The notes: generated by a model not told the origin, from the letters alone. A DNA stretch of 64,000 bases from Euryarchaeota archaeon UBA91 (GCA_002499705.1 DAMU01000040.1:114-64113); one strand, 5' to 3'. Counted from the first letter of the stretch, positions 44,928-59,540 are shown. Numbers and translations are program-made.

Positions 44928-44939
44928 AGAACCGGTTCT
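44928..44939. promoter_or_regulatory. Perfect 12-bp palindrome AGAACCGGTTCT, 30 nt upstream of the first gene of the archaellum-linked operon
   Basis: Read directly: ...gtgAGAACCGGTTCTttc... Located in the 200-bp bcp / 44969 divergent intergenic region, which also holds three TGCATTT/GCATTT copies and an A/T-rich TTTATGCAATAT stretch. Confidence 0.3.
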
Positions 44940-44968: not shown

Positions 44969-45400
44969 ATGGTGGCTAAGCGTATGTCTCGACGTTGTCG
45001 CCGGTATTCGAAAAAGATTCTACGCGCAAACACCAAGTTTGATCTTCAAACCATTGCAAGTACTATCCAAAGCGAACTCGATAAGCGTAATTTGTCTTAT
45101 GACGAGGCTTTGACACTCGGCAACATCATTCAAAGTCGTGCAGACCAATTGCCCGGAGACGCAATCGTCTATGCTGTATCAGACCGAGACGCATACCGTC
45201 GAACACTCGAACTCTACTTGCGCGACTCTCTACTGACTCAGACTGAGCAACTTCTTCTCTGGGATGAACGTCGTCGTCTCGGCATTTCCGATGTTGAACA
45301 CGAGCGATTACTCGAGCAACTTCTCCTCCAGTGGCGCAAACAAGGCAAGAAAGTTACAATCGCCAATTTTGAAAGACCAGGAAGTGGTACATCTGCGTAA
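44969..45400 (+). CDS. Hypothetical basic helical cytoplasmic protein (143 aa), first gene of the archaellum-linked unit
   Basis: ATG preceded by AGAGGT. Balanced, helix-rich sequence (…LTQTEQLLLWDERRRLGISDVEHERLLEQLLLQWRKQG…) with a basic N-terminus. I recognise no family. Confidence 0.55.
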   Translation: MVAKRMSRRCRRYSKKILRANTKFDLQTIASTIQSELDKRNLSYDEALTLGNIIQSRADQLPGDAIVYAVSDRDAYRRTLELYLRDSLLTQTEQLLLWDERRRLGISDVEHERLLEQLLLQWRKQGKKVTIANFERPGSGTSA

Positions 45401-48400
45401 TCTTCGATTGAATCAAACGACTTTGGCTGCACTCCTTGTTGCATTGTTCCTCGTGCCCTCGTTTTTACCGTTGGTTGGAGCAGACCAATCAGATGATTCA
45501 AGCACGACTGCTCGAAACTCACAACTCGATTTCACGTTCCGAAATCCATTGATGGTGACCAATTATGGTAGTGGTGACAATGGTTCTGCAATCATCGATG
45601 GTGCATTGTATCTTGAACCAGGAAAACACATGATTACTGCTAACATTTCTGCTACAGGAAGCGGAAGTGGAGAGCTCTGGCTTGTATTGCAGCACAAAGG
45701 TTCTCCTATTCTTGGATTCAGCGATGTCCCTGGAAAGACCATATCTCTTGGAACTGTAACCGGCAACGGAGGAGTGCTCGACCTTGCTCCAGTGACTTTC
45801 AGTTGGGATGCGACGACCGGTGCAGGTCAAGAGTTGCGAATTAAAATCCAATCTTCCAACGAGGCTGGTAACCAACTTCTCAACAACATCCAAGCATTGC
45901 CAATTTCATTTTCGGTTGAGAACAAGCATTTTGGCGAGGTCATCTCAAATAATCTGCCAACCGTTTCTGCCGACACCAATCAAATGGTCATGTCCGAGAC
46001 CATCAATCAGATCAATGTAAGTGTGACCAACTCGGGCGTTACCTCACTTCAAGCGAACATGACGGTAACTCTCACTCAAAACGGAACTTCACCTATAGAG
46101 ATAGATTCAAATGCCCTTAATCTTGAACCCGGCAGTTTTACCTTCACGCCAGTCCAAGATTCAGGAGTTCTTACCGCTTCTATTGACGTACCAGCCCTCG
46201 GAATTACAGGCGTTTACAACTTATCAATCACGGTTAAATTTTGGGGAGCAGGGTGGCAATCCGACCCTGCAACTCAACCTTCTTTGAAAATCGAAGGATG
46301 GGTAAAGTTCACTGACTACAATTCCGAAGTAATTGCGCCATCGACCATCGTTGGTGAACCTGGCGACACTGTTAGCATGACTTTCGTGGTTAAAAACACA
46401 GGTATCAAGAATGACCGGTTCAACATCGGTATGGTCGAAACCATCTCTCCAGCATGGACTTCAGGAGTGGCTCCTGACTTCGGAGCAAATGATTTGGCTC
46501 CGGGCGCTGTTCGACTTGTCACTGTTGAGGTGAGCATACCGGCAAGTGCTCAGCGCTCGATGACCGATACCATCACACTCACGTTCACTTCTCAAGCATC
46601 GACTGACAACTTCCAGATTGTAGCAGTCGGTAGAGTGATGGTCGGGGATTTCTTTAGTGGCGAAGCCAAATTCGAGGGTGATGCAAACGACCCCGGTGCT
46701 GACGATGCCCAATCTATTGTTCCTGGAGGTTTTGTTGATTTTAATGTCCGTGTCTCGAATTTAGGGAGTGTCGACTCTGCATTTTTGCTTGGCTCAGGAT
46801 TTGCGGTAAATGCTCTCAATTGGTCATTGGAAGTAGGAACGACAGGTAGTGGCCAACACACAACCCGAGTTATCTCTGCAGGAAGTTCTGAAATTGTCCA
46901 AGTAAAGGTTATTTCACCCCCAATTCAATCACCTATCGTAACCAGCGAGCGTAATACTGCTGGAGATTTAGTCGGCATATGGCTCTCTTGCCAACCGCTG
47001 AGTGGCGGTTCGCTTACATTGGATGACGCCACCGTTAAAGTCACATCAACAATCGTTGTTGACCCCGGCATAAACACAGAACCACAGACCGTATCTGCTG
47101 AAGAAATATCGGCTGCATTGACCGGTTCAATTATCACTCGGAATCCTTCGCTTAATTTGAGAGTGTTCAACAACCTTGCTCTTGCAACATCGTCTGGTGG
47201 AGGTTCCTTAAGCGACGAGAAACTCGACGCCGTCATTTCTTTTACCACCAGTTTTACCAGCGCAAGTGATGGTGGGTTTAGTGAAGCCGACCGTTGGAGT
47301 GTTTCGCTAACAAATCCGATTTACACAGGATTGCTCCCCAATGCCAGCGAAGATACCACACTCAATATTGCAGGACCAACCGGCGGAGAATTCCCTCTCG
47401 CAGGCACATTCACCGTATCAGTAACGGTCACGCCCACCCTCAGCGTAGCGCTTGAAGGAAGCGGCGTAGGTGTTGTTACAGTTACTCGAGATTACACTTT
47501 GATTATTCCTTCGATTATTCAAGGTGAATTCCTTGGGCCAAATTTCCCTCAAGACATCAATGTCGGTACTGAAAACCAAATCCCTCTCCAATTTGCAAAC
47601 ACTGGCAATGATGTTGCATCCTACCGTCTGCGCGTCTTAGACAGCGACCTTCCTGAGAACTGGATTGCGAACTTTAGCGAAGCCGATACAACCATTGAAA
47701 ATTTGACTTCTGATATTTCCGATGGAATAATCGACACGGGCACTTCCAGCCCTAACGTAATTCACACACGCATCGTGACCCTGAATATTCGAACAGATCC
47801 ACTTGCTCCTTCAGGACTTGTCCAGCCAATCCCAATACAAGTTGAAGATCCGTATTCTGGCCAAATCATAGGTGAGCAGTTCACCGTATATGTGGTCGTA
47901 GGTCAAGTCTATGACGCTGCTCTTTCGCCAACCAATCACACGGAACAACTTGAAGTTACACAATCTCAAGAGCACACAATCTTTGTTCGAAATACCGGTA
48001 ATGCCCCTACAGATTATTCCATTATGATAGATACATCTCAAGCAGGAGATGTTGAGTTTGAAATAGTCTCTCCTTTGAATAATAAATTGTTCATCGCTGC
48101 AGGCTATGAAGATTCTATTCGAGTGCGAATGACTGCAAATGCGGATGCCAATTATGACGAATTCTACATGGCAACCGTTTGGGTTTCCGCTAACGATGGT
48201 CAAATTTTGCTTTCATCGAACATTGTTGCAAACATAAGTGAAAATCATTCGTTCGTCATATCAGCAATTGAGGAATTAGCAGTTACACCGGGGACAGAAG
48301 AAGTCATTGATTTCAACTTGACCAATCGAGGAAATTTACAAGAATCCATCACTGTGAATTTCACCGTCGAAGGCGATCTCTCGTTATCCGACTATACCAT

Positions 48401-50501
48401 GACGCAGACAATACCAATCAATCAATCGTTTTCTGACCAACTCACGGTCACGATTCCTGAACTTACTTCATCAGACTCGATGGCTCAAGGAGATAGTTAC
48501 AATCTTACCATTACCGTGCTTAGTTCTGCAGGAAATGAATACAGCAGTCGCGTCATTAAATTGATTGTGCAACCATTGTTTATTGTAGAATCAAACGATT
48601 GGCCATCAGTCATGGAGTTTATGCCTCAATCGGATCGTACATGGGAAGTAACGCTCACAAATACCGGGAATCGTGATGTTATGGTGAGCGCAGCTTACAC
48701 CATCACCCGGCCTGGTCTGAGCAATTTCTCTTCTGATTGGCAAATGGTAAGTCAACCTTCGACTATTTCTCTTCCAAGAAATACACCTGTCGTTCATACA
48801 TTCACTGTGGTCGGAATGACTTCGAATCCTCTGCTATCACTGTCAGCTGATTTGACTATTTTCCTCCAACCGATGGACCTCACCGTTCAAGGAAGTGGTG
48901 AATTCTCGACACAACTGGTCATGTCACGATTCTATTCAACCGGTGAGATTGGACTGGCTCCGAGTGAAAACGACAATGATCCTGTGCCGGTGTACATTCC
49001 TCACACGCACATACCGGTGAGCAACTCCTCGTCCGCAGCCTATGAAGTTGAGTTGTGCAACTCGCAACGCCTGTTAAACCTCAACGCAATGGGCCTAGTA
49101 GAATCAGATTATCCATGGAACTTTACTCTTGTAGAAGAAAAAATAGACGGAACGACTGTCGGCCACCCGCTTGACCTCAACCAAGAATGTGGTGCCTCTT
49201 CTCTTGGCCCAACATCCCGTTATCCGTTATTAGAACAAGTAGCGTGGGATACTTCCAACATCAAACTCGAGGTTGATATCCCTAATCGCGGCTTCATTTT
49301 ACCTGGAGATGGTTGGAATCTAACGTTCCGGTTGTATCATCCCGAGGATAATGCTGGTTACACGCAGTATGATGAAGAAACATTCACCTTGGTCTTGGCG
49401 GTCTTTGCAGATCCAATGATTATGAGCGTTTCTTCGAATGACGGTTACTTCGAAGAAGGCACTGAAACAACCGTCACAGTCCTCATTCAGAATGTTGGTT
49501 CTGCTTCTGCTCTTGATGTAATCGTTGAATTACAATGTGATCTCCTAACGGTATCAAACAAAGCGAACGAACAGCCTCCATTGTATAACCGAAGCGTGAA
49601 TGGTGGAGTGAACACATCTATGATACCGTTCTTCTTCCCTGGTGATTCTGTATCTTTGCAATGGGTTGTTACAGCAAATTCAATCGATTGGTGGTCGCAA
49701 CGAGCCGAGGCAACTTGTATTGCTTCTCTTAATGCATCTTACATGGACAGTAACATCGAGGCGAACGATCAACTAAGCCTTATTGAAGATGTCAAATCTC
49801 AATCACCTGGTGTATCCAACAGTTTCATTGCGTGTATTGTTTTCATGCTCCTTTCGATTATCCTCTTCAGATTAACTGCCCAAAATGAGAACTTCAGATT
49901 ACTCGGTATTTATTCAGGAGTCGTTGGATTTGGATTCTCATTCCACATTTTCCAATATGCCTGGTGGGGTATTGTCGTCCTTGTTCTCAGCGCGCTCTGG
50001 ATATGGAGAGTGAGTTGGGGCAGTACTGAAGAGTTCAGATTATTGCATGAAGACTACCAGCGCGCACGCAAAGGTGTTTCAACGCTGTATTCTGACCACT
50101 TTGAGGAATTGGCAGACACTCGTCGCCAACTCAGCGTCATTCTCGCAGTTCCGGTTCTTGGTATGCTTGCTGTTGTTCTCGGACTTCCACCGTCCCTCTC
50201 AACAGACCAAACCAATTTGGTAAGTCTTATTTCGTATATCGGCGTTGTAATGATTGGGGTTTGGCTCATCATCAAGCGTGCAGATTCAGCTTACGGCTCA
50301 TTGTATGGACGTCTCACCGATATTGAGGTTAAATCTGTTCGAATTGAGAGAGATTTGAGCGATCCAGCACGACTCTTCAATGAACTTGCAGTCGATGGAT
50401 TAAATCTCGATGAAATCTTTGGAGACCTTGAACCTCCTGTGCCTGTGCCTGCTCCTGTCGTCATTGACGGAACAAACGAGGAGGTGAGTGACGATGTCTG
50501 A
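45384..50501 (+). CDS. Giant (~1706 aa) surface protein: 8 or more CARDB/NEW3-like beta-sandwich repeats, five C-terminal TM helices, cytoplasmic tail
   Basis: Signal LRNLRLNQTTLAALLVALFLVPSFLPLVGA. Repeated (V/L)xNxGN-type strands: VKNTGIKNDRFNI, VSNLGSVDSAFLL, FANTGNDVASYRL, VRNTGNAPTDYSI, LTNRGNLQESITV, LTNTGNRDVMVSA, IQNVGSASALDVIV. TM helices lie at about 49824..50275. The in-frame GTG at 45384 is preferred over the ATG at 45264, which would overlap the previous ORF by 137 nt. Confidence 0.8.
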   Translation: MVHLRNLRLNQTTLAALLVALFLVPSFLPLVGADQSDDSSTTARNSQLDFTFRNPLMVTNYGSGDNGSAIIDGALYLEPGKHMITANISATGSGSGELWLVLQHKGSPILGFSDVPGKTISLGTVTGNGGVLDLAPVTFSWDATTGAGQELRIKIQSSNEAGNQLLNNIQALPISFSVENKHFGEVISNNLPTVSADTNQMVMSETINQINVSVTNSGVTSLQANMTVTLTQNGTSPIEIDSNALNLEPGSFTFTPVQDSGVLTASIDVPALGITGVYNLSITVKFWGAGWQSDPATQPSLKIEGWVKFTDYNSEVIAPSTIVGEPGDTVSMTFVVKNTGIKNDRFNIGMVETISPAWTSGVAPDFGANDLAPGAVRLVTVEVSIPASAQRSMTDTITLTFTSQASTDNFQIVAVGRVMVGDFFSGEAKFEGDANDPGADDAQSIVPGGFVDFNVRVSNLGSVDSAFLLGSGFAVNALNWSLEVGTTGSGQHTTRVISAGSSEIVQVKVISPPIQSPIVTSERNTAGDLVGIWLSCQPLSGGSLTLDDATVKVTSTIVVDPGINTEPQTVSAEEISAALTGSIITRNPSLNLRVFNNLALATSSGGGSLSDEKLDAVISFTTSFTSASDGGFSEADRWSVSLTNPIYTGLLPNASEDTTLNIAGPTGGEFPLAGTFTVSVTVTPTLSVALEGSGVGVVTVTRDYTLIIPSIIQGEFLGPNFPQDINVGTENQIPLQFANTGNDVASYRLRVLDSDLPENWIANFSEADTTIENLTSDISDGIIDTGTSSPNVIHTRIVTLNIRTDPLAPSGLVQPIPIQVEDPYSGQIIGEQFTVYVVVGQVYDAALSPTNHTEQLEVTQSQEHTIFVRNTGNAPTDYSIMIDTSQAGDVEFEIVSPLNNKLFIAAGYEDSIRVRMTANADANYDEFYMATVWVSANDGQILLSSNIVANISENHSFVISAIEELAVTPGTEEVIDFNLTNRGNLQESITVNFTVEGDLSLSDYTMTQTIPINQSFSDQLTVTIPELTSSDSMAQGDSYNLTITVLSSAGNEYSSRVIKLIVQPLFIVESNDWPSVMEFMPQSDRTWEVTLTNTGNRDVMVSAAYTITRPGLSNFSSDWQMVSQPSTISLPRNTPVVHTFTVVGMTSNPLLSLSADLTIFLQPMDLTVQGSGEFSTQLVMSRFYSTGEIGLAPSENDNDPVPVYIPHTHIPVSNSSSAAYEVELCNSQRLLNLNAMGLVESDYPWNFTLVEEKIDGTTVGHPLDLNQECGASSLGPTSRYPLLEQVAWDTSNIKLEVDIPNRGFILPGDGWNLTFRLYHPEDNAGYTQYDEETFTLVLAVFADPMIMSVSSNDGYFEEGTETTVTVLIQNVGSASALDVIVELQCDLLTVSNKANEQPPLYNRSVNGGVNTSMIPFFFPGDSVSLQWVVTANSIDWWSQRAEATCIASLNASYMDSNIEANDQLSLIEDVKSQSPGVSNSFIACIVFMLLSIILFRLTAQNENFRLLGIYSGVVGFGFSFHIFQYAWWGIVVLVLSALWIWRVSWGSTEEFRLLHEDYQRARKGVSTLYSDHFEELADTRRQLSVILAVPVLGMLAVVLGLPPSLSTDQTNLVSLISYIGVVMIGVWLIIKRADSAYGSLYGRLTDIEVKSVRIERDLSDPARLFNELAVDGLNLDEIFGDLEPPVPVPAPVVIDGTNEEVSDDV

Positions 50502-51504
50502 TTCGGATAGCGTAGACCTCCCAGGTGAAGAACATACACTTGAGGAACAACCTCCATTTGACGGGGTTCAATCCGGTGACGCTCCATCCCCAAATCAACT
50601 AAGCAACGAATCTATGTCCGAGCAAGCAATCGCAATATCTCGAGACTTAGAGACAATGGTCCTTGGAGTGGCTCAGAACGATGCGAATTCACTTGCGGGA
50701 ACTGAACTCGAAATTGGTGACGCAAGGAGATTTTTGCGCTCACACAAACTTCGACGAGCACTCGCAAGCGTAAAGAATGCAGAAGCATCTCTTGTTGAAC
50801 TTGAAGAAGATGTCTTGTATCTTCGCCGTAACATTGCTATGTTGCACCGCCTTCTTAATGAGAAAAGAGTGAGTGAAGCAGATATAGAAACGATTCTTCT
50901 TCGCCTTCGAAGTGCAACTGGGGCAGCTGAAATAGGCGATGTTGGCGGTGCTGCAGGTGAAGTTGAATTCCTCGTGGACGATCTCATCGGTGGAAACACA
51001 TCAACTCTCAACCCCTTCCTCTTCCGTCATTTCTGGATGGGTCTGGAAACCCGATGGCCAGCAGGTGGTGATGAAGGCGTTCTCGTGGTTCGTATCATCA
51101 ATGATGGACCCGTTGCCATGCCCCCTATGCGACTTGCTCCCCCAGTCCCTGAAGGATGGACTGCAAAACCATCTTCGGTTGACCTTCCAACGATCGCTCC
51201 TGGTGGAAACCTCCCTGTGCGTTTCAATGTCGCGACAAATCGCCGTCAGGCTGCGGATGAAATTCCACTTTCTCGTAAGCTCGCAATTTCCACAGGTTAT
51301 GAAATCAGAACAGGTGAAGTCTTTGTGACCATCCGTGCACAAAATCGTTCGATGGAACCTCTAACAGATATTCTCCTCACGCCTTGGTTCCCGCCAGGTT
51401 ACATTTCGGACAAGGTGCCCTTTGTGTCACGTCTTGCTCCAGACGAAGTGGCAATGATTCGGATTCCACTTCGAATTAACATGAGTTCAGGAGGTAATTC
51501 TTGA
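50494..51504 (+). CDS. Hypothetical cytoplasmic protein (337 aa): acidic N-terminus, helical/coiled-coil region, two NEW3/CARDB-like beta-sandwich modules
   Basis: GAGGAGGTGA lies 6 nt upstream of the ATG. ATGTCTGA overlaps the stop of the giant gene. No signal peptide or TM. Helical LRRALASVKNAEASLVELEEDVLYLRRNIAMLHRLLNEK. Beta modules VLVVRIINDGPVAMPPMRLAPPVPEGWTAKPSSVDLPTIAPGGNLPVRFNV and VFVTIRAQNRSMEPLTDILLTPWFPPGY...EVAMIRIPLRI. Confidence 0.75.
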   Translation: MSDSDSVDLPGEEHTLEEQPPFDGVQSGDAPSPNQLSNESMSEQAIAISRDLETMVLGVAQNDANSLAGTELEIGDARRFLRSHKLRRALASVKNAEASLVELEEDVLYLRRNIAMLHRLLNEKRVSEADIETILLRLRSATGAAEIGDVGGAAGEVEFLVDDLIGGNTSTLNPFLFRHFWMGLETRWPAGGDEGVLVVRIINDGPVAMPPMRLAPPVPEGWTAKPSSVDLPTIAPGGNLPVRFNVATNRRQAADEIPLSRKLAISTGYEIRTGEVFVTIRAQNRSMEPLTDILLTPWFPPGYISDKVPFVSRLAPDEVAMIRIPLRINMSSGGNS

Positions 51505-51553
51505 ACTCAATCTATTCCACCCTGTATTGGGGGATTCTAAAAACGGTGAAATT

Positions 51554-52102
51554 ATGAAAGAAAATACGGACGAAAAACACGACAATCTCGCAGCCATAGG
51601 TATCGGCGCAATGATTGTTTTTATTGCGCTAATTCTGGTTGCGTCAGTTGCAGCAGCTGTAATTATATCAACTGCTGAAAAATTACAACAAAACGCCCAG
51701 AATACAGGTGCGGAGACGACAAACATGCTCTCCTCAAAGGTAGTTGTTCTGAGTGTTATGGTAATACAGAACAGTGATTTGTATATTACTTTTGAATTAG
51801 CACCAGGTTCTTCAAATATTGCTCCAGGAGACATTGATTTCGCGATTGTATGCTCGAATGGTGCAGTGTATGGGGATTTCTCTCTAACTTCACTCGTTGG
51901 TACTAATGCGGGTTTACCGCTTAATACACTGTTACAATCCCATACGACCTATGACATTACTTTAGCATCAGCACTTATTGCAGACTGTCCACCGACTGCC
52001 AACGATGACCATTCACTTGTCATTCAGTCAGAATACGGCGGATACACGTTTGAAGCATTGAATTATGGATCCGACGTTACTCCAGGGGCGGTGGTTGTAT
52101 GA
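51554..52102 (+). CDS. arlB: Archaellin (class III signal peptide)
   Basis: MKENTDEKHDNLAAIGIGAMIVFIALILVASVAAAVIISTAEKLQQNAQNTG is the archaellin N-terminal helix. The track start at 51527 is TTG; the ATG at 51554 follows GGTGA. Confidence 0.9.
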   Translation: MKENTDEKHDNLAAIGIGAMIVFIALILVASVAAAVIISTAEKLQQNAQNTGAETTNMLSSKVVVLSVMVIQNSDLYITFELAPGSSNIAPGDIDFAIVCSNGAVYGDFSLTSLVGTNAGLPLNTLLQSHTTYDITLASALIADCPPTANDDHSLVIQSEYGGYTFEALNYGSDVTPGAVVV

Positions 52103-52707
52103 AGACTGACTCTAAGCAAATTAAGGACGACAAGATTGCAGCAATCGGTATTGGAGCAATGATTGTTTTCATCGCTCTTATTCTGGTCGCAGCAGTTGCC
52201 GCAGCCGTTATTATTCAAACCGCAGAGAAACTTCAACAAAGCGCAGAAACAACTGGCGATGACACCGCCAAAAATCTCGCAGGGAAGTTTGTAATCCACG
52301 ACGGTTTTGTCGCAACAGGGGCAAACGGTGGTTTACCAACCTACACTGATGCGAACGCTTACTTCTTTACAGCGACACTCGCACCAGGAAGTACACCGAT
52401 TCGAATCAATACAATCACCTACCAAATGTTTTGTGATAGTGGTTTAATCGAAGGGGTATTTGGTACGGATGCAGATGTTCAAGAAATGCATAACGGAGAC
52501 AATGGAGTCCTTGCGGCTACAGTTGAACTCCAACCTAAACAGCAGTACGTTTTGTGGGTTCTAGCGTCTGATAACGGTATCGATTGTTCAGCAGGAAATG
52601 CTGCAGGTGATACGACCATTGAACTTGCAATCCACGTCGGCACTGGAGGTTCGACCTTCCTCACATTAAATGTTGATTCAACCACTGCTGGAGCACCGGT
52701 GGTCTGA
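52099..52707 (+). CDS. arlB: Archaellin (class III signal peptide), second copy
   Basis: MKTDSKQIKDDKIAAIGIGAMIVFIALILVAAVAAAVIIQTAEKLQQSAETTG. ATGA overlap with the first archaellin. Confidence 0.9.
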   Translation: MKTDSKQIKDDKIAAIGIGAMIVFIALILVAAVAAAVIIQTAEKLQQSAETTGDDTAKNLAGKFVIHDGFVATGANGGLPTYTDANAYFFTATLAPGSTPIRINTITYQMFCDSGLIEGVFGTDADVQEMHNGDNGVLAATVELQPKQQYVLWVLASDNGIDCSAGNAAGDTTIELAIHVGTGGSTFLTLNVDSTTAGAPVV

Positions 52708-52741: not shown

Positions 52742-53578
52742 ATGGCATGGCCTTTTAGTAAAAATACCAATCAAAATCAAGATGCTGATGCAGCTCTCAC
52801 AGAAGAGCGCCTCAAGATTATGTCGAACATTGCTATTGAGCAAGTTCCACTACCGGAACAAGGTGAACTGGGTGAAGAAGATGCATGGACGATCAGTCCT
52901 GGGCTTACGAAAGCTCGGCTCAACAGTATCGGAAGCGTACCAACTGTTGCTGCGAATCTTGCACCAGCCTCAGCACCGGCACCTGTGAGTACTACCGTAG
53001 ACACATCGGGACTTGAACGTCTCATCAGCACCCGCCTTGACATGGTAGAAGATGTCCTGCGCATGGTTGAAGTTCGTCTGGATGAGGGACCGTCCGGTTC
53101 CAATTCAGGAGAGTCTCAATCCGAAGGTGACGGAGATACTGCTGCCTTGGATGGTGACACGATTGTTACTGCCTCTGGCGAGACAATTAGTGTCTCAGGC
53201 ACTGATCGAATGATGGGTACTGATGAAGCACCATTGGTCGAATTGTATGAAGCACAGGCATTGGCAGCGAATCCATTTTTGCATGCCCCTTCATTTGGCG
53301 CACATACAGAAACAAACCATGTTGGTGCTCCAACCATTTCAGCGCTCTTGCTTGCAAACATGTCCGGAATGGCTGCGGTGAGTTTTGCTCAGAAAGCCAT
53401 GGCTTCTGGAATGCTTACCGATGATGAAGGCCGAAAAGTCCTCGCAATCGTGCAACTTGCAGAACCTGGTGAATCAGAAGCCGCTCTTGACGACCACTTG
53501 ACACACAAGGAGTTGCTCACGTTTTCATCGCTTGTGAGTTCATGGCGAAGCGTGAAATCACTTCGAGGTGAAGTCTGA
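52742..53578 (+). CDS. Hypothetical acidic soluble protein (278 aa) in the position normally held by arlC/D/E
   Basis: GGAGGA lies 6 nt upstream. No TM. Ala/Pro-rich linker, acidic Ser/Gly-rich middle, helical C-terminal region. I see no match to the FlaC or FlaD/E domains. Confidence 0.7.
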   Translation: MAWPFSKNTNQNQDADAALTEERLKIMSNIAIEQVPLPEQGELGEEDAWTISPGLTKARLNSIGSVPTVAANLAPASAPAPVSTTVDTSGLERLISTRLDMVEDVLRMVEVRLDEGPSGSNSGESQSEGDGDTAALDGDTIVTASGETISVSGTDRMMGTDEAPLVELYEAQALAANPFLHAPSFGAHTETNHVGAPTISALLLANMSGMAAVSFAQKAMASGMLTDDEGRKVLAIVQLAEPGESEAALDDHLTHKELLTFSSLVSSWRSVKSLRGEV

Positions 53579-53579
53579 T

Positions 53580-54233
53580 ATGGGCGCCTCGGTTGGTGTG
53601 GGGGGTCTCATTGTAGGGATCTCAATGTTGTTGGTCTTTTCAATGGCCATTACAACATTAAGCAGTCAAACAACGACTTCTTTAGAAGTTATTGAATCTG
53701 CTCAGACACCAGCCCCAATCATCACAATCGAAAGTGCGCAATACCTCAATTCAATACACAGTATTAGCATCCTTAACGGCGGTAATGGCTATGTTGACGG
53801 TCAACTCATCTCATCAGATTGTCCTGGTTTTTCAGCAGATTTCACCGTGATTGCCGGTGTCATATCTTCCGTTGATACAATTGTCAACCGAGGTGTTTGT
53901 AATGCTGACCCTGCCACAATCGAAGTCGAAAACCAACCCGGTGGAAGTAACGCAGATTTTGACTCAGAGATAAAACGCTATTTTCACGGCGAAGTCACGA
54001 ATGATGGGTCTGAGACACTTTCTACCGGCGAGGTTTGGTTTTTCTTTGACGGCTTGTCACCAACAACCATGACTTCATCCGATTTTTCTCCATCCGTAGT
54101 GAAGAATAATTGGTTTTCTGGAGAGACAATTTCCGTTATTGGTGCGAGTGAAGGCCCTACGCCTTTACTTTCTCGAATGAGTATTACTGTTGGTGAAACG
54201 AGTGTTTCGAAAACGATAGTCGTTCCAGCATGA
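53580..54233 (+). CDS. arlF: ArlF-like archaellum protein
   Basis: MGASVGVGGLIVGISMLLVFSMAITTL resembles the FlaF-type MGFS... N-terminal hydrophobic helix followed by a beta-rich domain. Position is upstream of arlG-H-I-J. GAGGTGA lies 8 nt upstream. The F versus G assignment rests on order and N-terminus only. Confidence 0.65.
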   Translation: MGASVGVGGLIVGISMLLVFSMAITTLSSQTTTSLEVIESAQTPAPIITIESAQYLNSIHSISILNGGNGYVDGQLISSDCPGFSADFTVIAGVISSVDTIVNRGVCNADPATIEVENQPGGSNADFDSEIKRYFHGEVTNDGSETLSTGEVWFFFDGLSPTTMTSSDFSPSVVKNNWFSGETISVIGASEGPTPLLSRMSITVGETSVSKTIVVPA

Positions 54234-54242
54234 GGTGAGAAG

Positions 54243-54761
54243 ATGGCAGACGGTGGAGCATCAACAATCATCATGCTGGTTACCGCATTGCTCATTTCAA
54301 GTGCAGCGAGTGCTGTCCTAATCCAAGAATGGTCCTCTACCTCACGAGTCATGCAACAGCAACAGATGGGGTTACAAATCTCTGAAGAGATCGGAATTGA
54401 TTTTGCTGGTGACCCGATGATGGTCGATCTCCAACTGGGCGCAACTCCGGCAGCACTCAACGAAATAACGTTCTATGTTCAGAACACTGGCATTCACAAG
54501 ATGAATGAAAACTCACTTTCTATCATCGTCGATGGAGTTACCCTTGACGGAACTTCAATTGTAAGTCGGTCGTTTGTACCAAACACTGCCGGTGATTGGG
54601 ACTCACATGTTTTACTTGAAATAAAAATGCGCGATATCGCCTTTGACGCATATGTCGATGGCGAAGAAATTTCAATCTTTGCGATCGCACGTTCGCTCAA
54701 TATTAACGGAATTTCGATGAGTGCCGAGATGAGTGAGGAGGTGCAATTGCATGTCTCCTGA
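54243..54761 (+). CDS. arlG: ArlG-like archaellum protein
   Basis: MADGGASTIIMLVTALLISSAASAVLIQEW is an archaellin-like N-terminal helix. 172 aa, located between arlF and arlH. GAGGTGA lies upstream. Confidence 0.65.
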   Translation: MADGGASTIIMLVTALLISSAASAVLIQEWSSTSRVMQQQQMGLQISEEIGIDFAGDPMMVDLQLGATPAALNEITFYVQNTGIHKMNENSLSIIVDGVTLDGTSIVSRSFVPNTAGDWDSHVLLEIKMRDIAFDAYVDGEEISIFAIARSLNINGISMSAEMSEEVQLHVS

Positions 54762-55494
54762 GCACGGTAATGAAGATCCGTTGATGACGGCACACAAGCC
54801 AATAGAAGATGGATTCCCTTATGATCTTGAAACGGATTCATTAGCAGATTCGATGGGTCTTCGTCTTCCGAATCGTTCTCTCTATGTTCTCCAGGGGACT
54901 GTTGGTGGTGGTAAATCTCTCATTTCCCAACGCCTTGTCTATGGATTAGTTGAAAACGGTGTCAAGGTCTTGGTTATCACAACTGAACTGACGACTCGCG
55001 GTTGGATTGAACAAATGGAATCCATTGGATACGGCGTTACCGATGCAGTTCGTGAAGGAAAACTTCTCATCTTCAGCCGTTTTGGAACTATTGCTGAATC
55101 TAAACCTGAGGTTAAGTTGGAACAACTCTTAGATTCTGAAGCAATCGAATTAGCCGATGTTGTTGTCATCGATTCAGCGAGTTCGATTATGCCTTCTGAT
55201 CTTGACGATATCAGTCGTTTTAATTTGATGCAGCGTCTTCGTCAAATCTCATCGAAAGGGCGTTCACTGATGTTGTGCGTCGACCCTGAAGAGATGGATG
55301 AGAAGTTGATGCATAACATGCGCAGTTCTGCTGAAATTGTATTGGATCTTACAACGAACATGATTGGAGGAGAAATCAAACGAAACATCGTTGTTACTCG
55401 TTTCTTACGCGCAGCCGGTCCTGTCCAAACATCGATTGGATGGCGTGTTGAACCAAGTATGGGCTTCATCGTTGATATTACTGCGGTGAGTTGA
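54751..55494 (+). CDS. arlH: ArlH (FlaH), RecA/KaiC-like ATP-binding archaellum protein
   Basis: Walker A LQGTVGGGKSLISQRL, KVLVITTELTT, VVVIDSAS (Walker B-like). GAGGAGGTG lies 7 nt upstream of the ATG at 54751. Confidence 0.85.
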   Translation: MSPEHGNEDPLMTAHKPIEDGFPYDLETDSLADSMGLRLPNRSLYVLQGTVGGGKSLISQRLVYGLVENGVKVLVITTELTTRGWIEQMESIGYGVTDAVREGKLLIFSRFGTIAESKPEVKLEQLLDSEAIELADVVVIDSASSIMPSDLDDISRFNLMQRLRQISSKGRSLMLCVDPEEMDEKLMHNMRSSAEIVLDLTTNMIGGEIKRNIVVTRFLRAAGPVQTSIGWRVEPSMGFIVDITAVS

Positions 55495-55508
55495 GGAGGG
55501 ATATTACG

Positions 55509-57227
55509 ATGGTTGAAGAAGAACTCCGATTTGCTCGAGGTGACCTGAATGCGGTCATGAACGCACACCCTCACGTTGGCGATTGGGTTCGGGATTTTGA
55601 GGCGAAATACGGTTCCCGTCCTATCTATTATGGGCCCTTGGATCGAGATGCTAAAAAGCAACGACCACTCAATTTAATTTATCTTGCAAAGGAACCTATC
55701 TTTGTCCATATTTACGAACCTCCTGCGGACGAAGAAGGTGGTGGTCAAGTCCTATGGTTCGGTTTAGAGCCTCAATTGACTGAAGAAGAAGAGAATATTC
55801 GTAGACAATTGGTTGAAACACTGCTCCAAGAGGCTCCAAGCGCTCCGACTTTTACAACCGATTCAGAGTTTGAGTCAATCCTCGCTCGAATGATTGATCA
55901 ATACACTGTCCTTGAATCTGAACTTACTACCAATGTACGTCGTCAAGGACGCATGTGGGAAATGATGGGCTTAGATGACAAGCGCATGCTTGTTACTCCT
56001 GAGCAGCGCGAACGATTACAATACATCATCATTCGCGATTTGATACGAAACGGCCCTCTTGAACCCCTACTCTCCGATGAAATGTTGGAAGATATTCACT
56101 CCATTGGTTTGAAGCACGTTCACATGGATCACAAAGTGTTTGGAATGGTCTCCTCAAACATCCGTTTCCGAGACCGCGACGTTCTCGCTCGTTTCTTACG
56201 TGCCATGTCTGAACGTATCGGCCGACCAGTTTCAGACAATAAGCCGATTATCGATGGTGCTTTGCTTGACGGCTCACGTATCAATATTATTTTCTCCGAT
56301 GACGTATCAATGCTCGGCCCTTCGTTCACCATCCGTAAGTTCGCTGAGGAAACAATTTCGATTACTCAACTTATCGCATGGGGGACGATTTCATCTCAAG
56401 TTGCCGCCTATATCTGGATCTGTCTTGAATACGGCATGTCCGTGCTCGTGTCTGGTGAAACCGCATCCGGAAAGACGACGACATTGAATGCAATTTTACC
56501 GTTCATTGATCACAATGTTAAGATCTATTCAGCAGAAGACACACCTGAAGTTAAGGTTCGTCACAAGATTTGGCAACGTCTGGTTACTCGAACATCAAAG
56601 AGTGAAGATTCGAGCGTTGAAATGTTCGATTTGTTGAAGGCAGCTTTACGTAGCCGTCCCAGATACATCATCATCGGTGAAATTCGTGGTGTTGAAGGAG
56701 CAACTGCATTCCAAGCAATGCAGACTGGTCACCCAGTTATCGCTACATTCCACGCATCATCCATCGTTAAAATGATTCAGAGATTTACCGGTGACCCAAT
56801 CAATGTTCCAATTCGTTTCTTCGACAACCTGAACTTCGCTATTTTCCAAGAAGTGGTTGAAGCGCCTGGTGGCGGAATTGCTCGACGTGTTACGGGTATT
56901 GACGAGGTCATTGGATACAATAAACACAGCGACGGTGTGCTTACCCGTGGTATGTTCGAATGGGATCCTGTGAAGGACAAGCACTATTTCCGAGGTATGT
57001 TTCAAAGTCATTTACTTGAAAACAAAATTGCAGCAATGGCAGGATTTGCTAATAAGCGTGACATTTACGATGAAATGCTCAAGCGCGCAGATGCTCTTCA
57101 ACGCATGGTAGACCGAGACCTTACCCACTATGACGACGTTTTCGATTTACTTGGAATTTATTACAACAGTGGATGGGATCATTTCGATAAAGCCGTTGAT
57201 AGTTGGAAAGGCATAAACCATGATTGA
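55509..57227 (+). CDS. arlI: ArlI (FlaI), archaellum assembly/motor ATPase (type II/IV secretion ATPase superfamily)
   Basis: VLVSGETASGKTTTLNAILPFI (Walker A), YIIIGEIRGVEGATAFQAMQTGHPVIATFHA. GAGGAGGG lies 8 nt upstream of the ATG at 55509. Confidence 0.95.
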   Translation: MVEEELRFARGDLNAVMNAHPHVGDWVRDFEAKYGSRPIYYGPLDRDAKKQRPLNLIYLAKEPIFVHIYEPPADEEGGGQVLWFGLEPQLTEEEENIRRQLVETLLQEAPSAPTFTTDSEFESILARMIDQYTVLESELTTNVRRQGRMWEMMGLDDKRMLVTPEQRERLQYIIIRDLIRNGPLEPLLSDEMLEDIHSIGLKHVHMDHKVFGMVSSNIRFRDRDVLARFLRAMSERIGRPVSDNKPIIDGALLDGSRINIIFSDDVSMLGPSFTIRKFAEETISITQLIAWGTISSQVAAYIWICLEYGMSVLVSGETASGKTTTLNAILPFIDHNVKIYSAEDTPEVKVRHKIWQRLVTRTSKSEDSSVEMFDLLKAALRSRPRYIIIGEIRGVEGATAFQAMQTGHPVIATFHASSIVKMIQRFTGDPINVPIRFFDNLNFAIFQEVVEAPGGGIARRVTGIDEVIGYNKHSDGVLTRGMFEWDPVKDKHYFRGMFQSHLLENKIAAMAGFANKRDIYDEMLKRADALQRMVDRDLTHYDDVFDLLGIYYNSGWDHFDKAVDSWKGINHD

Positions 57228-57237
57228 GGGATAATGT

Positions 57238-59040
57238 ATGCAGCGAATGTCTTCCTGGCAAATCGCTCTGCGTCGCATAGAAATGCCCATTTCACAATTC
57301 ATTTTGTTCTTCGTTGGTGGTGCTGCACTTACAGGATTTATCTTCTCTTTCATTTTGATATCCGTCACCGGTGGTACTGGTGATCAAGGTCTTTTTACTG
57401 GTAGTTCGAGTATTCTTTTGGCCCTCTTACTCCCACTCATCACAGGTGGGGCAGCCTTCGTATTCCCGTTACTTGAGGTCCGTCGTTCGGCGACCATGAT
57501 CGAAAAAGAGATGCACATGTTCATCACTCGAATGGGAATTCTATCATTGGGTGAAGTCGCAGCCCAATCGATTTTCGATATCCTAAAGCAGATGAGTGAT
57601 TATGGTGAACTCGCTATTGAAGTGAAGCGGATTGAAACTCTTGTCGACAAATGGCATACCTCTTTGCCTGAAGCATCTCGAATCGTTGCTCAGCAAAGTC
57701 CCAGCCCCCTGTGGGCTGATTTCCTTGATCGAATGGCTTTTTCAATTGAGGCAGGTCAACCGATTGACGAATTTATGCGCTCAGAACAAGAAACGGTTTC
57801 CGAACAATACGCTACGCTCTACGACACTCGCCTTGAATCGGTCGATACGATGAAAGAAATCTATGTTTCTTTGGTTTCTGCCGGATTATTTGGTTTAGTT
57901 ATTGCAGGAATTCACCTTGTCCTTTTCGAAGTTGGTTCAGCAAGCGATACTCCAATCATGGTTGCGAGTCGCCTGCGCTTCTTACTGCTTGCAGGTTTGT
58001 TGTTTACCGTCGTTCAGGTTGGTGCTGTTTTTGCATTCCGTGCCTCTATTCCTGAAGACCCAACTTTTGCTCGTGACACCTTAGATACTCCGTTTCGTAT
58101 TAATTTCGTTCGCTCGCTTGTACTGTCCTTCGTTCTTACAGGCATACTTCTGGTTGTAACCATCATCACTATTCTTTCAGCTTGGCAGGCGGTCACGTCT
58201 CAGTGGGACCGTTATGGATTGCTGCTCATCGCTGCTCCGTTATCTCCAATGCTTATTCCTGCGCTGATGGTTGGACGAGAAGAGCGACAAATTCTTCGCA
58301 GAGACGAAACCTATCCTGATTTTATTCGAGCACTTGGTGGAACCGCTCAAGCACGTTCGGCAGAACCTTCTGCTACAATCAAAGCACTCCGTGGCATTGA
58401 TTTTGGAATGCTTGACAACTCTATCGACCGTTTGGAACGTCGACTTTCAACCCGAATCGATTCGGATAGAGCATGGGATTACTTCAATGCAGATACGAAC
58501 TCTGCTGTTATCTCTCGTTATACTCGAATTTACATTGAAGGCTCTCAATCTTCGGGTCAGCCGGCACGAACTGCCGAAATGGTTTCTCGAACGGTAGGCA
58601 GTCTTCTTTCTCTGCGCCGCCGCAGATCTCTCTCAGCCAACACCATGCGTGGCGTAGCGCTTGGTTTACTCATTGCTTGTGTAACCAGCCTGAATGTTAC
58701 GATTTCTATTGTCGTACGTCTCGGTGATTCAATTGCAGGAATCGCAACGACATTCACTGAGAACAGCAATGTCGACCTCGCCCAGTTCGGTGCTCAAATT
58801 GCACTACCAATCATGGACGATGCTTCAGGAGTTAGTGAAAACATTCGCTTGTTCAAAATCATTGTTTCCATTCTTATCCTTTTCCAAGTCTGGGCGGTTT
58901 CAGTCATTTCGAATCGACTCCGAGGTGGTGGTATGACCACCGCACTGGGGCAATCGATTCAACTGCTTTGGATTGCCGGGATAACTTCGTATGTCACATC
59001 GCTGATTCTCGAATCTGCTGCAGCACTATTCAATGTGTGA
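57238..59040 (+). CDS. arlJ: ArlJ (FlaJ), polytopic archaellum membrane platform protein
   Basis: 600 aa. Two blocks of TM helices separated by cytoplasmic helical domains (T2SS-F-like duplication). Immediately downstream of arlI. Confidence 0.85.
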   Translation: MQRMSSWQIALRRIEMPISQFILFFVGGAALTGFIFSFILISVTGGTGDQGLFTGSSSILLALLLPLITGGAAFVFPLLEVRRSATMIEKEMHMFITRMGILSLGEVAAQSIFDILKQMSDYGELAIEVKRIETLVDKWHTSLPEASRIVAQQSPSPLWADFLDRMAFSIEAGQPIDEFMRSEQETVSEQYATLYDTRLESVDTMKEIYVSLVSAGLFGLVIAGIHLVLFEVGSASDTPIMVASRLRFLLLAGLLFTVVQVGAVFAFRASIPEDPTFARDTLDTPFRINFVRSLVLSFVLTGILLVVTIITILSAWQAVTSQWDRYGLLLIAAPLSPMLIPALMVGREERQILRRDETYPDFIRALGGTAQARSAEPSATIKALRGIDFGMLDNSIDRLERRLSTRIDSDRAWDYFNADTNSAVISRYTRIYIEGSQSSGQPARTAEMVSRTVGSLLSLRRRRSLSANTMRGVALGLLIACVTSLNVTISIVVRLGDSIAGIATTFTENSNVDLAQFGAQIALPIMDDASGVSENIRLFKIIVSILILFQVWAVSVISNRLRGGGMTTALGQSIQLLWIAGITSYVTSLILESAAALFNV

Positions 59041-59081: not shown

Positions 59082-59540
59082 ATGCAAGTCCCTCCACCAC
59101 CCGCCCCAGTCTCGCCAACTCAACCCGTAATCCCAGCTGCGCCATCACCATACCAGCCAGCAGCAGGTTTCCAACAGTCTGTTCTCAGTTACTCGTTTCA
59201 CCGTTGTCTCATGATTGGTGTAATCCTTATTCTTGCATCGGTCGTCTTTGTTGAAGTTATTGAGATGGATGGAGCACCATCTTTGGTTGACTATGACATG
59301 GAAGTTGAAGGTCAAATGGAACAGATGCTGGAAGATACTGAATCACATACCGACTTGAATCGCGTTATAGGTTCCTTTAGTGCAATTCTCCAAGCCATCG
59401 GACTTGGGATGATTGGCTATGCACTGCTAAGAGAATCTCATGACGGAACCAATGAGCACACAGCACTGCGAGTCACTACCGTTATCGTTGGTGCTTTGGT
59501 TCTCGTAAACATTGCTTCTCGAAGTATTACCATCTTCTGA
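59082..59540 (+). CDS. Hypothetical membrane protein (152 aa) with a Pro-rich N-terminus, last gene of the archaellum unit
   Basis: MQVPPPPAPVSPTQPVIPAAPSPYQP, then three hydrophobic helices (LMIGVILILASVVFV, FSAILQAIGLGMIGYALL, TTVIVGALVLVNIA). Starts 41 nt after arlJ. Confidence 0.6.
   Translation: MQVPPPPAPVSPTQPVIPAAPSPYQPAAGFQQSVLSYSFHRCLMIGVILILASVVFVEVIEMDGAPSLVDYDMEVEGQMEQMLEDTESHTDLNRVIGSFSAILQAIGLGMIGYALLRESHDGTNEHTALRVTTVIVGALVLVNIASRSITIF

Follow-up and report, generated by a model that had tools for sequence, protein, structure and literature searches.

A stretch of 64,000 nucleotides (nt) from Euryarchaeota archaeon UBA91 (GCA_002499705.1 DAMU01000040.1:114-64113; hereafter the window) carries on its plus strand a gene for a protein of 1705 amino acids (aa) at 45384..50501, referred to here as the giant, which is encoded in a tightly packed string of genes with the archaellins and ArlF-J. 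The giant is a secreted-type chain of immunoglobulin (Ig)-like domains with five predicted transmembrane (TM) helices near its C-terminus, and it is followed by the gene for a soluble protein, p337. We found that the giant accompanied ArlJ across the order Poseidoniales and that giant/p337 pairs also stood beside archaellin genes in other families of the phylum. On these comparisons, the giant and p337 very likely belong functionally to the Thermoplasmatota archaellum system, and the giant is probably an undescribed archaellum part of Marine Group II (MGII) and several other Thermoplasmatota families.

The giant and ArlJ were each searched for in 301 Poseidoniales genomes, with metagenome-assembled genomes (MAGs) of 73-98% completeness. 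Both genes were found in 193 genomes and neither in 102; 3 further genomes had the giant without ArlJ, and 3 had ArlJ without the giant. These counts ignore kinship and are not phylogenetically independent. Each gene was present in 196 genomes belonging to the same 17 of 26 genera, and two of the three giant-only cases were contig-end artefacts (G039 and G096). The 102 genomes without either gene included high-quality ones, and a 94% complete genome from an otherwise positive genus (G035) lacked both. The giant was single-copy and conserved in length over the order, in which it differs from typical adhesins; in two further families, one of them the second large one, it was full-length at 24-28% identity. 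Close relatives shared the whole neighbourhood, so synteny among them says little. The gene order (p143)-giant-p337-archaellin(s)-p278-ArlF-ArlG-ArlH-ArlI-ArlJ, where p143 and p278 are soluble proteins without a family match, was kept in six of six distant genomes up to the contig limits. By its conserved position among the arl genes and its matching phyletic pattern, the giant qualified as a component of the archaellum gene cluster. The preliminary description of this DNA had placed the gene in the archaellum unit, and this placement was upheld: orthologues were not found mostly away from arl genes or in non-archaellated lineages.

Equivalents of the pair were also found beyond Poseidoniales. 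An order-wide profile of the C-terminal module found the complete module in Poseidoniales only, and it matched weakly a multi-Ig protein of 1,282 aa, with about five TMs at its C-terminus, from a genome of another class-level lineage (G318, family f20). The order of that locus was giant-like protein, p337 homologue, archaellin and a recognisable ArlC/D/E fusion. The giant/p337 pair therefore coexists there with ArlC/D/E, as an addition to the known accessory proteins and not a replacement for them. A p337 profile retrieved full-length homologues in several other Thermoplasmatota families (E 1e-21 to 4e-37), where a multi-Ig protein of 1,489-1,664 aa, with one TM at the N-terminus and 4-5 at the C-terminus, was followed by the p337 homologue, archaellin(s), a soluble slot protein and ArlF-J. 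This layout, in which the pair stands at the head of a complete arl cluster, was seen in families f10, f18, f35 (two genomes checked each), f43, f44 (giant cut by contig end). Since the flanking genes in these families and in f20 were unrelated to those of Poseidoniales, the shared layout is not inherited neighbourhood synteny. The giants outside Poseidoniales aligned with the Poseidoniales giant in the last sandwich and in the layout of TM1-TM3 and TM4-TM5. Proteins of these families were annotated 'hypothetical' and, where named, came from uncultured 'Thermoplasmata archaeon' MAGs. Homologues of p337 followed the giant in all loci inspected, within and beyond Poseidoniales, where the giant was in place, and profile similarity indicates clear homology of p337 across these families. 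At the phylum level, the ArlJ profile search also matched probable pilus platform paralogues at E 1e-100.

The giant and p337 were further linked at their junction, where the TGA of the giant overlaps the ATG of p337 (ATGTCTGA). Among Poseidoniaceae, all 35 orthologues inspected carried GGAGGTG within the last codons of the giant, 5-7 nt before the stop-overlapping ATG, and the giant/p337 junctions of distant orthologues read ATGA, TGATG, TAGATG or TGAgATG. Such a conserved junction implies coupled synthesis of both proteins, and the sequences argue for translational coupling of the two in every lineage inspected. The overlap of the giant stop with the start of a cytoplasmic protein directly preceding the archaellins had been pointed out before; it was borne out, with p337 as an open reading frame (ORF) of 336 aa. 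In the window (50477-50501) and in loci L027-L106, the C-terminal peptide EEVxDD(V/A) was encoded by GAGGAGGTG...GATG..TGA, which is the Shine-Dalgarno sequence plus the start codon of the next gene. Conservation of this peptide reflects, at least partly, constraint at the nucleotide level on the ribosome-binding site and start codon of p337. A docking role for EEVxDDV was considered; the GGAGGTG and ATG within its codons account for most of what suggested it. The parts of the giant and its partner are as follows.

45384..45488, plus strand: predicted signal peptide, aa 1-35 (hydropathy; V-G-A/D cleavage-like site; conserved orthologue N-termini).
45489..49805, plus strand: ectodomain, aa 36 to ~1474, acidic, with ~12-13 putative Ig-like NEW3/CARDB-type sandwiches.
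49809..50024, plus strand: TM1 (aa 1476-1499), TM2 (1502-1519) and TM3 (1526-1547), by hydropathy and AlphaFold2.
50025..50120, plus strand: predicted cytoplasmic charged loop after TM3, the best-conserved part of the giant.
50121..50282, plus strand: TM4 (aa ~1580-1600), short outside loop PPSLSTDQTN and TM5 (1609-1633), by hydropathy and AlphaFold2.
50283..50498, plus strand: predicted cytoplasmic tail, aa 1634-1705, ~72 aa, with the TM5 helix continuing to ~aa 1659, then a pair of short helices and an acidic, Pro-rich end that is disordered.
50480..50501, plus strand: coupling signal within the last codons of the giant, with GGAGGTGA at 50480-50487 (encoding E-E-V-S), ATG 50494 and TGA 50499-50501.
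50494..51504, plus strand: p337, cytoplasmic protein of 336 aa; acidic, disordered N-terminal stretch, then a region of five helices (aa 35-165) and a tandem beta-sandwich (aa 180-328).

The longest open frame spanning the giant gene was 45264..50501 on the plus strand. Starts of orthologues and of called proteins aligned with GTG 45384, behind an AGGA(A/G) motif, in agreement with the earlier coordinates 45384-50501, and the closest called protein (P0004) was also 1705 aa and 99% identical. The first 17 nt of the gene are shared with the end of p143 (44969..45400). Kyte-Doolittle windows outlined a signal-peptide-like segment at aa 9-35 followed by VGA/DQ, and cleavage is predicted at the V-G-A/D-like site. 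A full-length search with the giant returned 296 relatives; the best 120 of these were all 1,571-1,732 aa long, 35-99% identical and nearly full-length, and where named they were a 'hypothetical protein' of Poseidoniaceae or Poseidonia. One contig with a typical Poseidonia-type giant (L094, NZEQ01000038.1) was deposited under a 'Verrucomicrobiales bacterium' MAG, a label that probably stems from misbinning in the public record.

Behind the signal peptide, the strand motif (V/L)xNxG recurred 11 times (aa 56, 212, 334, 455, 735, 866, 977, 1089, 1210, 1297 and 1366), and its 110-130-aa spacing suggests an ectodomain of ~12-13 Ig-like modules, of which the last two were modelled. NEW3 (PF10633) was the sole Pfam match above cut-off in the giant (31.9 bits versus 24.4, aa 325-392), which places the protein among NEW3/CARDB-type Ig-like repeat surface proteins, defined by at least one domain over the Pfam gathering threshold. 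CARDB (PF07705) stayed below threshold in the giant (19.4 versus a cut-off of 22.7) and is on record for many orthologues; Ig_VWA7, Cep192_D3 and choice-of-anchor-T were likewise sub-threshold in the giant, and several of them are on record in orthologues. Motif spacing and the NEW3 match are in line with the chain of at least eight CARDB/NEW3-like modules described before. The whole giant has a net charge of -117 with a very acidic ectodomain, and all 24 N-x-S/T sequons of the mature protein precede aa 1451, within the ectodomain. The last two sandwiches of the AlphaFold2 model gave fold matches to CARDB (3idu), Fsx1 domain IV and TRAP-beta type Ig folds, and in the last sandwiches two Cys, a GDGW motif and an N..ND motif were invariant order-wide. 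Residues 327-420 of Fsx1, a single Ig-like domain, matched the last sandwich at E 1e-7 by fold and 3e-4 by sequence. A reading of the giant as a fusexin (Fsx1, a HAP2-like class II fusogen, in which domains I-III with fusion loops form a trimer) is not favoured, as this top match spans one sandwich; the rest of the ectodomain, judged from domain matches and motif spacing, probably consists of Ig repeats.

The membrane module was studied by hydropathy and by an AlphaFold2 model of the last 416 residues of the giant, built from a 50-sequence alignment (mean predicted local distance difference test score, pLDDT, 79.7; helices 85-91). Hydrophobic segments by Kyte-Doolittle lay at aa 1474-1501, 1522-1544, 1580-1607 and 1610-1633, with a weaker one at ~1502-1520. 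The helices of the model were at aa 1476-1499, 1502-1519, 1526-1547, 1572-1600 (including TM4) and 1609-1659 (TM5, extending into the cytoplasm), and the model also contained two beta-sandwiches, a short loop helix (1549-1562), two short tail helices and ~25 disordered final residues. Both approaches agreed with the preliminary description on five C-terminal TM helices, so that formal prediction did not lower their number; they span nt ~49809-50282, compared with 49824-50275 before. Its statement that the other giant proteins of the window each have one C-terminal TM was also correct on inspection of those proteins. The charged loop reported between the helices, STEEFRLLHEDYQRARKGVSTLYSDHFEELADTRRQ, was present. 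The cytoplasmic tail with its Pro-rich acidic end was present as well, at ~72 aa and not the ~85 aa given earlier; in the model it was helical to ~aa 1679 and disordered beyond. The predicted topology, with the ectodomain outside and both the 35-40-aa charged loop and the ~72-aa tail inside, agrees with the distribution of Arg and Lys (positive-inside rule).

Conservation in the giant was highest from TM3 through the loop to TM4. In an alignment of 31 orthologues across the order, aa 1551-1600 (loop plus TM4) had 52% mean identity versus 20-35% elsewhere. The loop carried the order-wide motif W..S..E(F/L)..IH.D.(Q/R)(R/K)A..G......(D/N)H with invariant residues E, D, G and H, and the tail carried the conserved motif YG.LYG.L...E....RI.R.L.DPA. 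A search of 1.84 billion representative proteins with the 253-aa C-terminal module gave 62 matches, and all were C-termini of full-length giants or short fragments; the module is exclusive to the giant's own family and occurs in no other architecture. It had no sequence or fold match in the PDB, the fold search being dominated by Ig domains. The invariant E/H/D/G/H prompted the idea of a catalytic or metal site in the loop; as the equivalents outside Poseidoniales have a different loop or none, such a site is probably not a general feature.

The partner protein p337 was without a TM segment, and its model had a pLDDT of 76.9. Fold searches gave weak matches to ASH domains of ciliary central-apparatus proteins, CEP192 SPD-2, PapD-like chaperones and adaptin appendages. 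In the model, p337 looks like a protein-protein adaptor made of a helical bundle and tandem Ig-like domains. It had no Pfam or NCBIfam match, including none to PF04659 or PF05377, and could not be assigned to ArlX or ArlC/D/E on this basis; profile comparison by hhalign found no similarity of p337 to the ArlCDE fusion of G318 or to p278 (probability at most 2%). Homologues of p337 outside Poseidoniales (L026 6013-10312, G313:C64; L025 9889-11592) ended in CxxC...CxxC zinc-ribbon-like motifs. In G313, three coiled-coil proteins with DnaJ-type CXXCXGXG motifs at their ends came after the giant/p337 pair, and no archaellin lay within 7 kb.

These properties bear on what the pair might do. Because constraint peaks on the loop and the TM bundle, the coupled cytoplasmic adaptor is obligatory, and size and copy number are conserved, a role in joining the inside of the cell to the outside is indicated. 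The giant would sit beside the motor as a static anchor, collar or scaffold, spanning the membrane and paired with p337, a reading to which we assign roughly an even chance. In this arrangement, the loop and tail of the giant would bind p337, and p337 would in turn contact the cytoplasmic motor, either ArlH/I/J or the protein in the ArlCDE slot. The long ectodomain would extend into or through the cell envelope beside the filament, and the pair would tie the motor to the envelope as a stator-like scaffold next to ArlF/G. A more specific version is tentative and rather doubtful: the pair would make up a trans-envelope assembly, specific to Thermoplasmatota, that acts as a stator or anchor. Its polytopic subunits would be arranged in a ring, with Ig-chain ectodomains giving static hold or drag and loops clamping the ATPase complex via p337. 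If true, such a ring assembly would explain how an ATP-driven rotary motor stays still where many members of the phylum lack a conventional rigid wall. An ion-driven stator was rejected; there were no MotA/ExbB/TolQ-like features, the TM module was without a PDB match by sequence or, in a search dominated by the Ig domains, by fold, and the order-wide orthologue alignment contained no invariant charged residue inside the TM helices.

Several observations weigh against an archaellum anchor, in addition to the kinship ignored by the co-occurrence counts. In families f7 and f16, the giant/p337 pair was on a different contig from ArlJ, which was present in the genome. In family f24 (L120, G331:C131), the arl cluster was without a giant or p337 directly upstream of the archaellin, with weak p337-profile matches on other contigs, and the module is therefore not universal in archaellated Thermoplasmatota. 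The cytoplasmic loop was variable or absent in the giants outside Poseidoniales; its motif is order-specific. Homology between the Poseidoniales giant and those of the other families is likely but weakly supported, by weak profile matches, architecture and position. Profile, sequence and fold searches revealed no similarity of the giant or p337 to ArlX, ArlC/D/E, ArlF/G, MotA/ExbB or solved membrane modules. ArlF/G-like genes are present in the cluster, hence a stator already exists. Finally, co-regulation with the archaellum would fit an adhesin too, and passages of one study propose that the operon serves attachment (PMC6461757).

The giant could accordingly be a surface adhesin for attachment to particles or cells that is merely co-expressed with the archaellum, with the five-TM module and p337 serving to anchor it or to signal engagement. 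We regard this as possible but unlikely. Its ectodomain of NEW3/CARDB/Ig modules is typical of adhesins, and the N-terminal (distal) third of the ectodomain was the most variable part of the giant, at 20-26% mean identity to the query in the 31-orthologue alignment. The same passages on the MGII operon propose adhesion and not swimming, with chemotaxis genes absent (PMC6461757), and in f7 and f16 the pair does not adjoin arl core genes. However, copy number, length and domain count are conserved across the order and beyond, and the strongest constraint falls on the cytoplasmic loop and TM module instead of a tip domain. An obligatory coupled cytoplasmic partner would also be unusual for an adhesin, and the giant is lost together with the archaellum.

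A second alternative is that the giant forms a local envelope or surface-layer (S-layer)-like 'collar' that replaces or remodels the surface layer at the filament exit; this seems improbable as a full account. Its architecture of an Ig chain with a C-terminal membrane anchor and its archaellum-specific distribution suit such a part, and passages in two surveys provide precedents, namely S-layer-like proteins of Ig fold that are encoded in loci for archaella and type IV pili (PMC13705601, PMC4858521). The polytopic anchor, the highly conserved loop and the coupled cytoplasmic partner are nevertheless left unexplained by a collar only, and the idea overlaps with the static anchor, collar or scaffold that we favour. 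The precedents include multi-Ig proteins of arCOG05057 in archaellum loci of Methanococcales and Thermococcales, for which passages of the recent survey propose local modification of the envelope or anchoring (PMC13705601). More broadly, S-layer-like proteins are treated there, and in passages of an earlier analysis, as extra components of archaeal type IV filament loci (Makarova 2016, PMC4858521; 2026 type IV filament (T4F) survey, PMC13705601). Like those proteins as the passages present them, the giant is a large secreted Ig-fold chain with a C-terminal membrane anchor in an archaellum locus, and function is predicted in both cases. Compared by concept and not by sequence, the giant differs from the arCOG05057 proteins in its conserved five-helix anchor, its conserved loop and tail, its coupled cytoplasmic partner, and the retention of the pair across Thermoplasmatota.

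A sensor or regulator is quite improbable. The ectodomain would sense surface contact or a ligand and the TM module would signal via p337 to the motor, replacing chemotaxis input. The passages that report no chemotaxis genes in MGII (PMC6461757), the invariant E, H, D, G and H of the loop, and the adaptor-like p337 would be compatible with this. Yet Pfam and NCBIfam scans found no known signalling domains in the giant, the loop motif is absent outside Poseidoniales though the pair is kept there, and the pair also occurs alongside ArlC/D/E. Most remote is a general S-layer or main cell-envelope protein, the alternative raised in the preliminary description as the 'cell-envelope protein itself'. 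The size and acidity of the giant, its many sequons, its multi-Ig surface domain and its membrane anchor would suit this role. It was absent, however, from all 102 non-archaellated Poseidoniales genomes sampled, high-quality ones included, which must still build an envelope, and this phyletic pattern is not that of an archaeal main S-layer protein, which is present regardless of motility. The gene is also part of a motility operon, and further giant surface proteins of the window carry one C-terminal TM, as is usual.

The static anchor, collar or scaffold was further compared with known archaellum parts. ArlF and ArlG, of ~150 aa with an N-terminal pilin-like TM, form the S-layer-binding beta-sandwich stator of the archaellum and are thought to hold the motor to the envelope. 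The giant resembles them in having extracytoplasmic beta-sandwiches. It differs from them in its normal signal peptide, its ~13 domains, its C-terminal polytopic anchor and the absence of a match to NF052590 or NF052591, and the ArlF/G-like genes of the window are separate (53568-54761). Like ArlX of Thermoproteota and ArlC/D/E of Euryarchaeota, p337 and p278 are soluble, partly helical, lineage-specific, poorly conserved and encoded next to archaellins. Unlike ArlX and ArlC/D/E, p337 belongs to a pair that coexists with ArlC/D/E in f20, and its profile was without similarity to the ArlCDE fusion. If the giant/p337 pair is indeed a stator anchor, it would represent a third way in which the motor is held, in addition to ArlX and to ArlCDE with ArlF/G.

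Archaea of MGII are the most abundant in the surface ocean and are uncultured, and their archaellum may serve swimming or sticking. A conserved two-protein membrane-spanning module annotated 'hypothetical' is therefore a candidate for a missing machine part, be it an anchor, a collar or an attachment device. The five-TM module, the conserved loop and p337 are offered as structural targets, and the pair can serve as a comparative-genomic marker for the Thermoplasmatota-type archaellum locus. Passages of the studies of the MGII 'motility operon' (Tully 2019, Rinke 2018) concern the same locus, with unannotated syntenic orthologues around FlaA/G/H/I/J (PMC6336850, PMC6461757). The passages of MGII operon and type IV filament papers located by keyword did not mention the five-helix anchor, the loop, the coupled tandem-Ig partner or the spread in Thermoplasmatota.

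The remaining genes of the archaellum cluster in the window are as follows.

44969..45400, plus strand: p143, 143 aa, basic, helical, soluble, first gene of the unit, no known family.
51527..52707, plus strand: two archaellin genes (PF01917, E 1e-19 and 4e-20).
52742..53578, plus strand: p278, acidic soluble protein in the ArlC/D/E slot, no family match.
53568-54233, plus strand: ArlF-like gene (NF052590 E 1e-4, below cut-off; N-terminal TM).
54243-54761, plus strand: ArlG-like gene (NF052591 E 1e-9, below cut-off; N-terminal TM).
54733-55494, plus strand: ArlH (Pfam match to KaiC-like ATPase).
55491-57227, plus strand: ArlI (Pfam match to T2SSE).
57238-59040, plus strand: ArlJ (Pfam match to T2SSF).
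59082..59540, plus strand: p152, small protein after ArlJ with ~3 TMs and a Pro-rich N-terminus (an ORF of 142-146 aa at the same place in Poseidoniaceae loci L001-L003).

No ArlC/D/E or ArlX was recognisable in this cluster, and Pfam and NCBIfam scans of the giant, p143, p337, p278 and p152 found nothing informative beyond Ig-type domains and the weak ArlF/G matches. By its repeated position, p152 may be a further unrecognised cluster member. The first archaellin ORF is listed from TTG 51527, and ATG 51554 behind GGTGA is probably the true start; both archaellins have Ala-Ala instead of Gly before the hydrophobic helix. Poseidoniaceae, family f2 and the Thalassarchaeaceae-like genera g20, g22 and g24 had the p143 gene upstream of the giant, and it was missing in g21, g26 and the listed non-archaellated genomes. 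Across families, p143 (47-60% identity) was much better conserved than the giant (24-28%). Residues 70-117 of p143 are similar to part of a protein of 342-396 aa whose gene lies at another place in genomes of the genus (G000:C78:5166-5309), and p143, being basic and helical, could be a regulator or chaperone of the unit. In one Thalassarchaeaceae-like genome (L013 9070-12222, G039:C207), an extra 1,050-aa ORF, ~15% identical to the giant in alignment, separated the p143 and giant genes. A perfect 12-bp palindrome, AGAACCGGTTCT, was located at 44928-44939, ~30 nt upstream of the p143 start in the 200-bp gap divergent from a bcp-like gene, and may be an operator of the archaellum unit.

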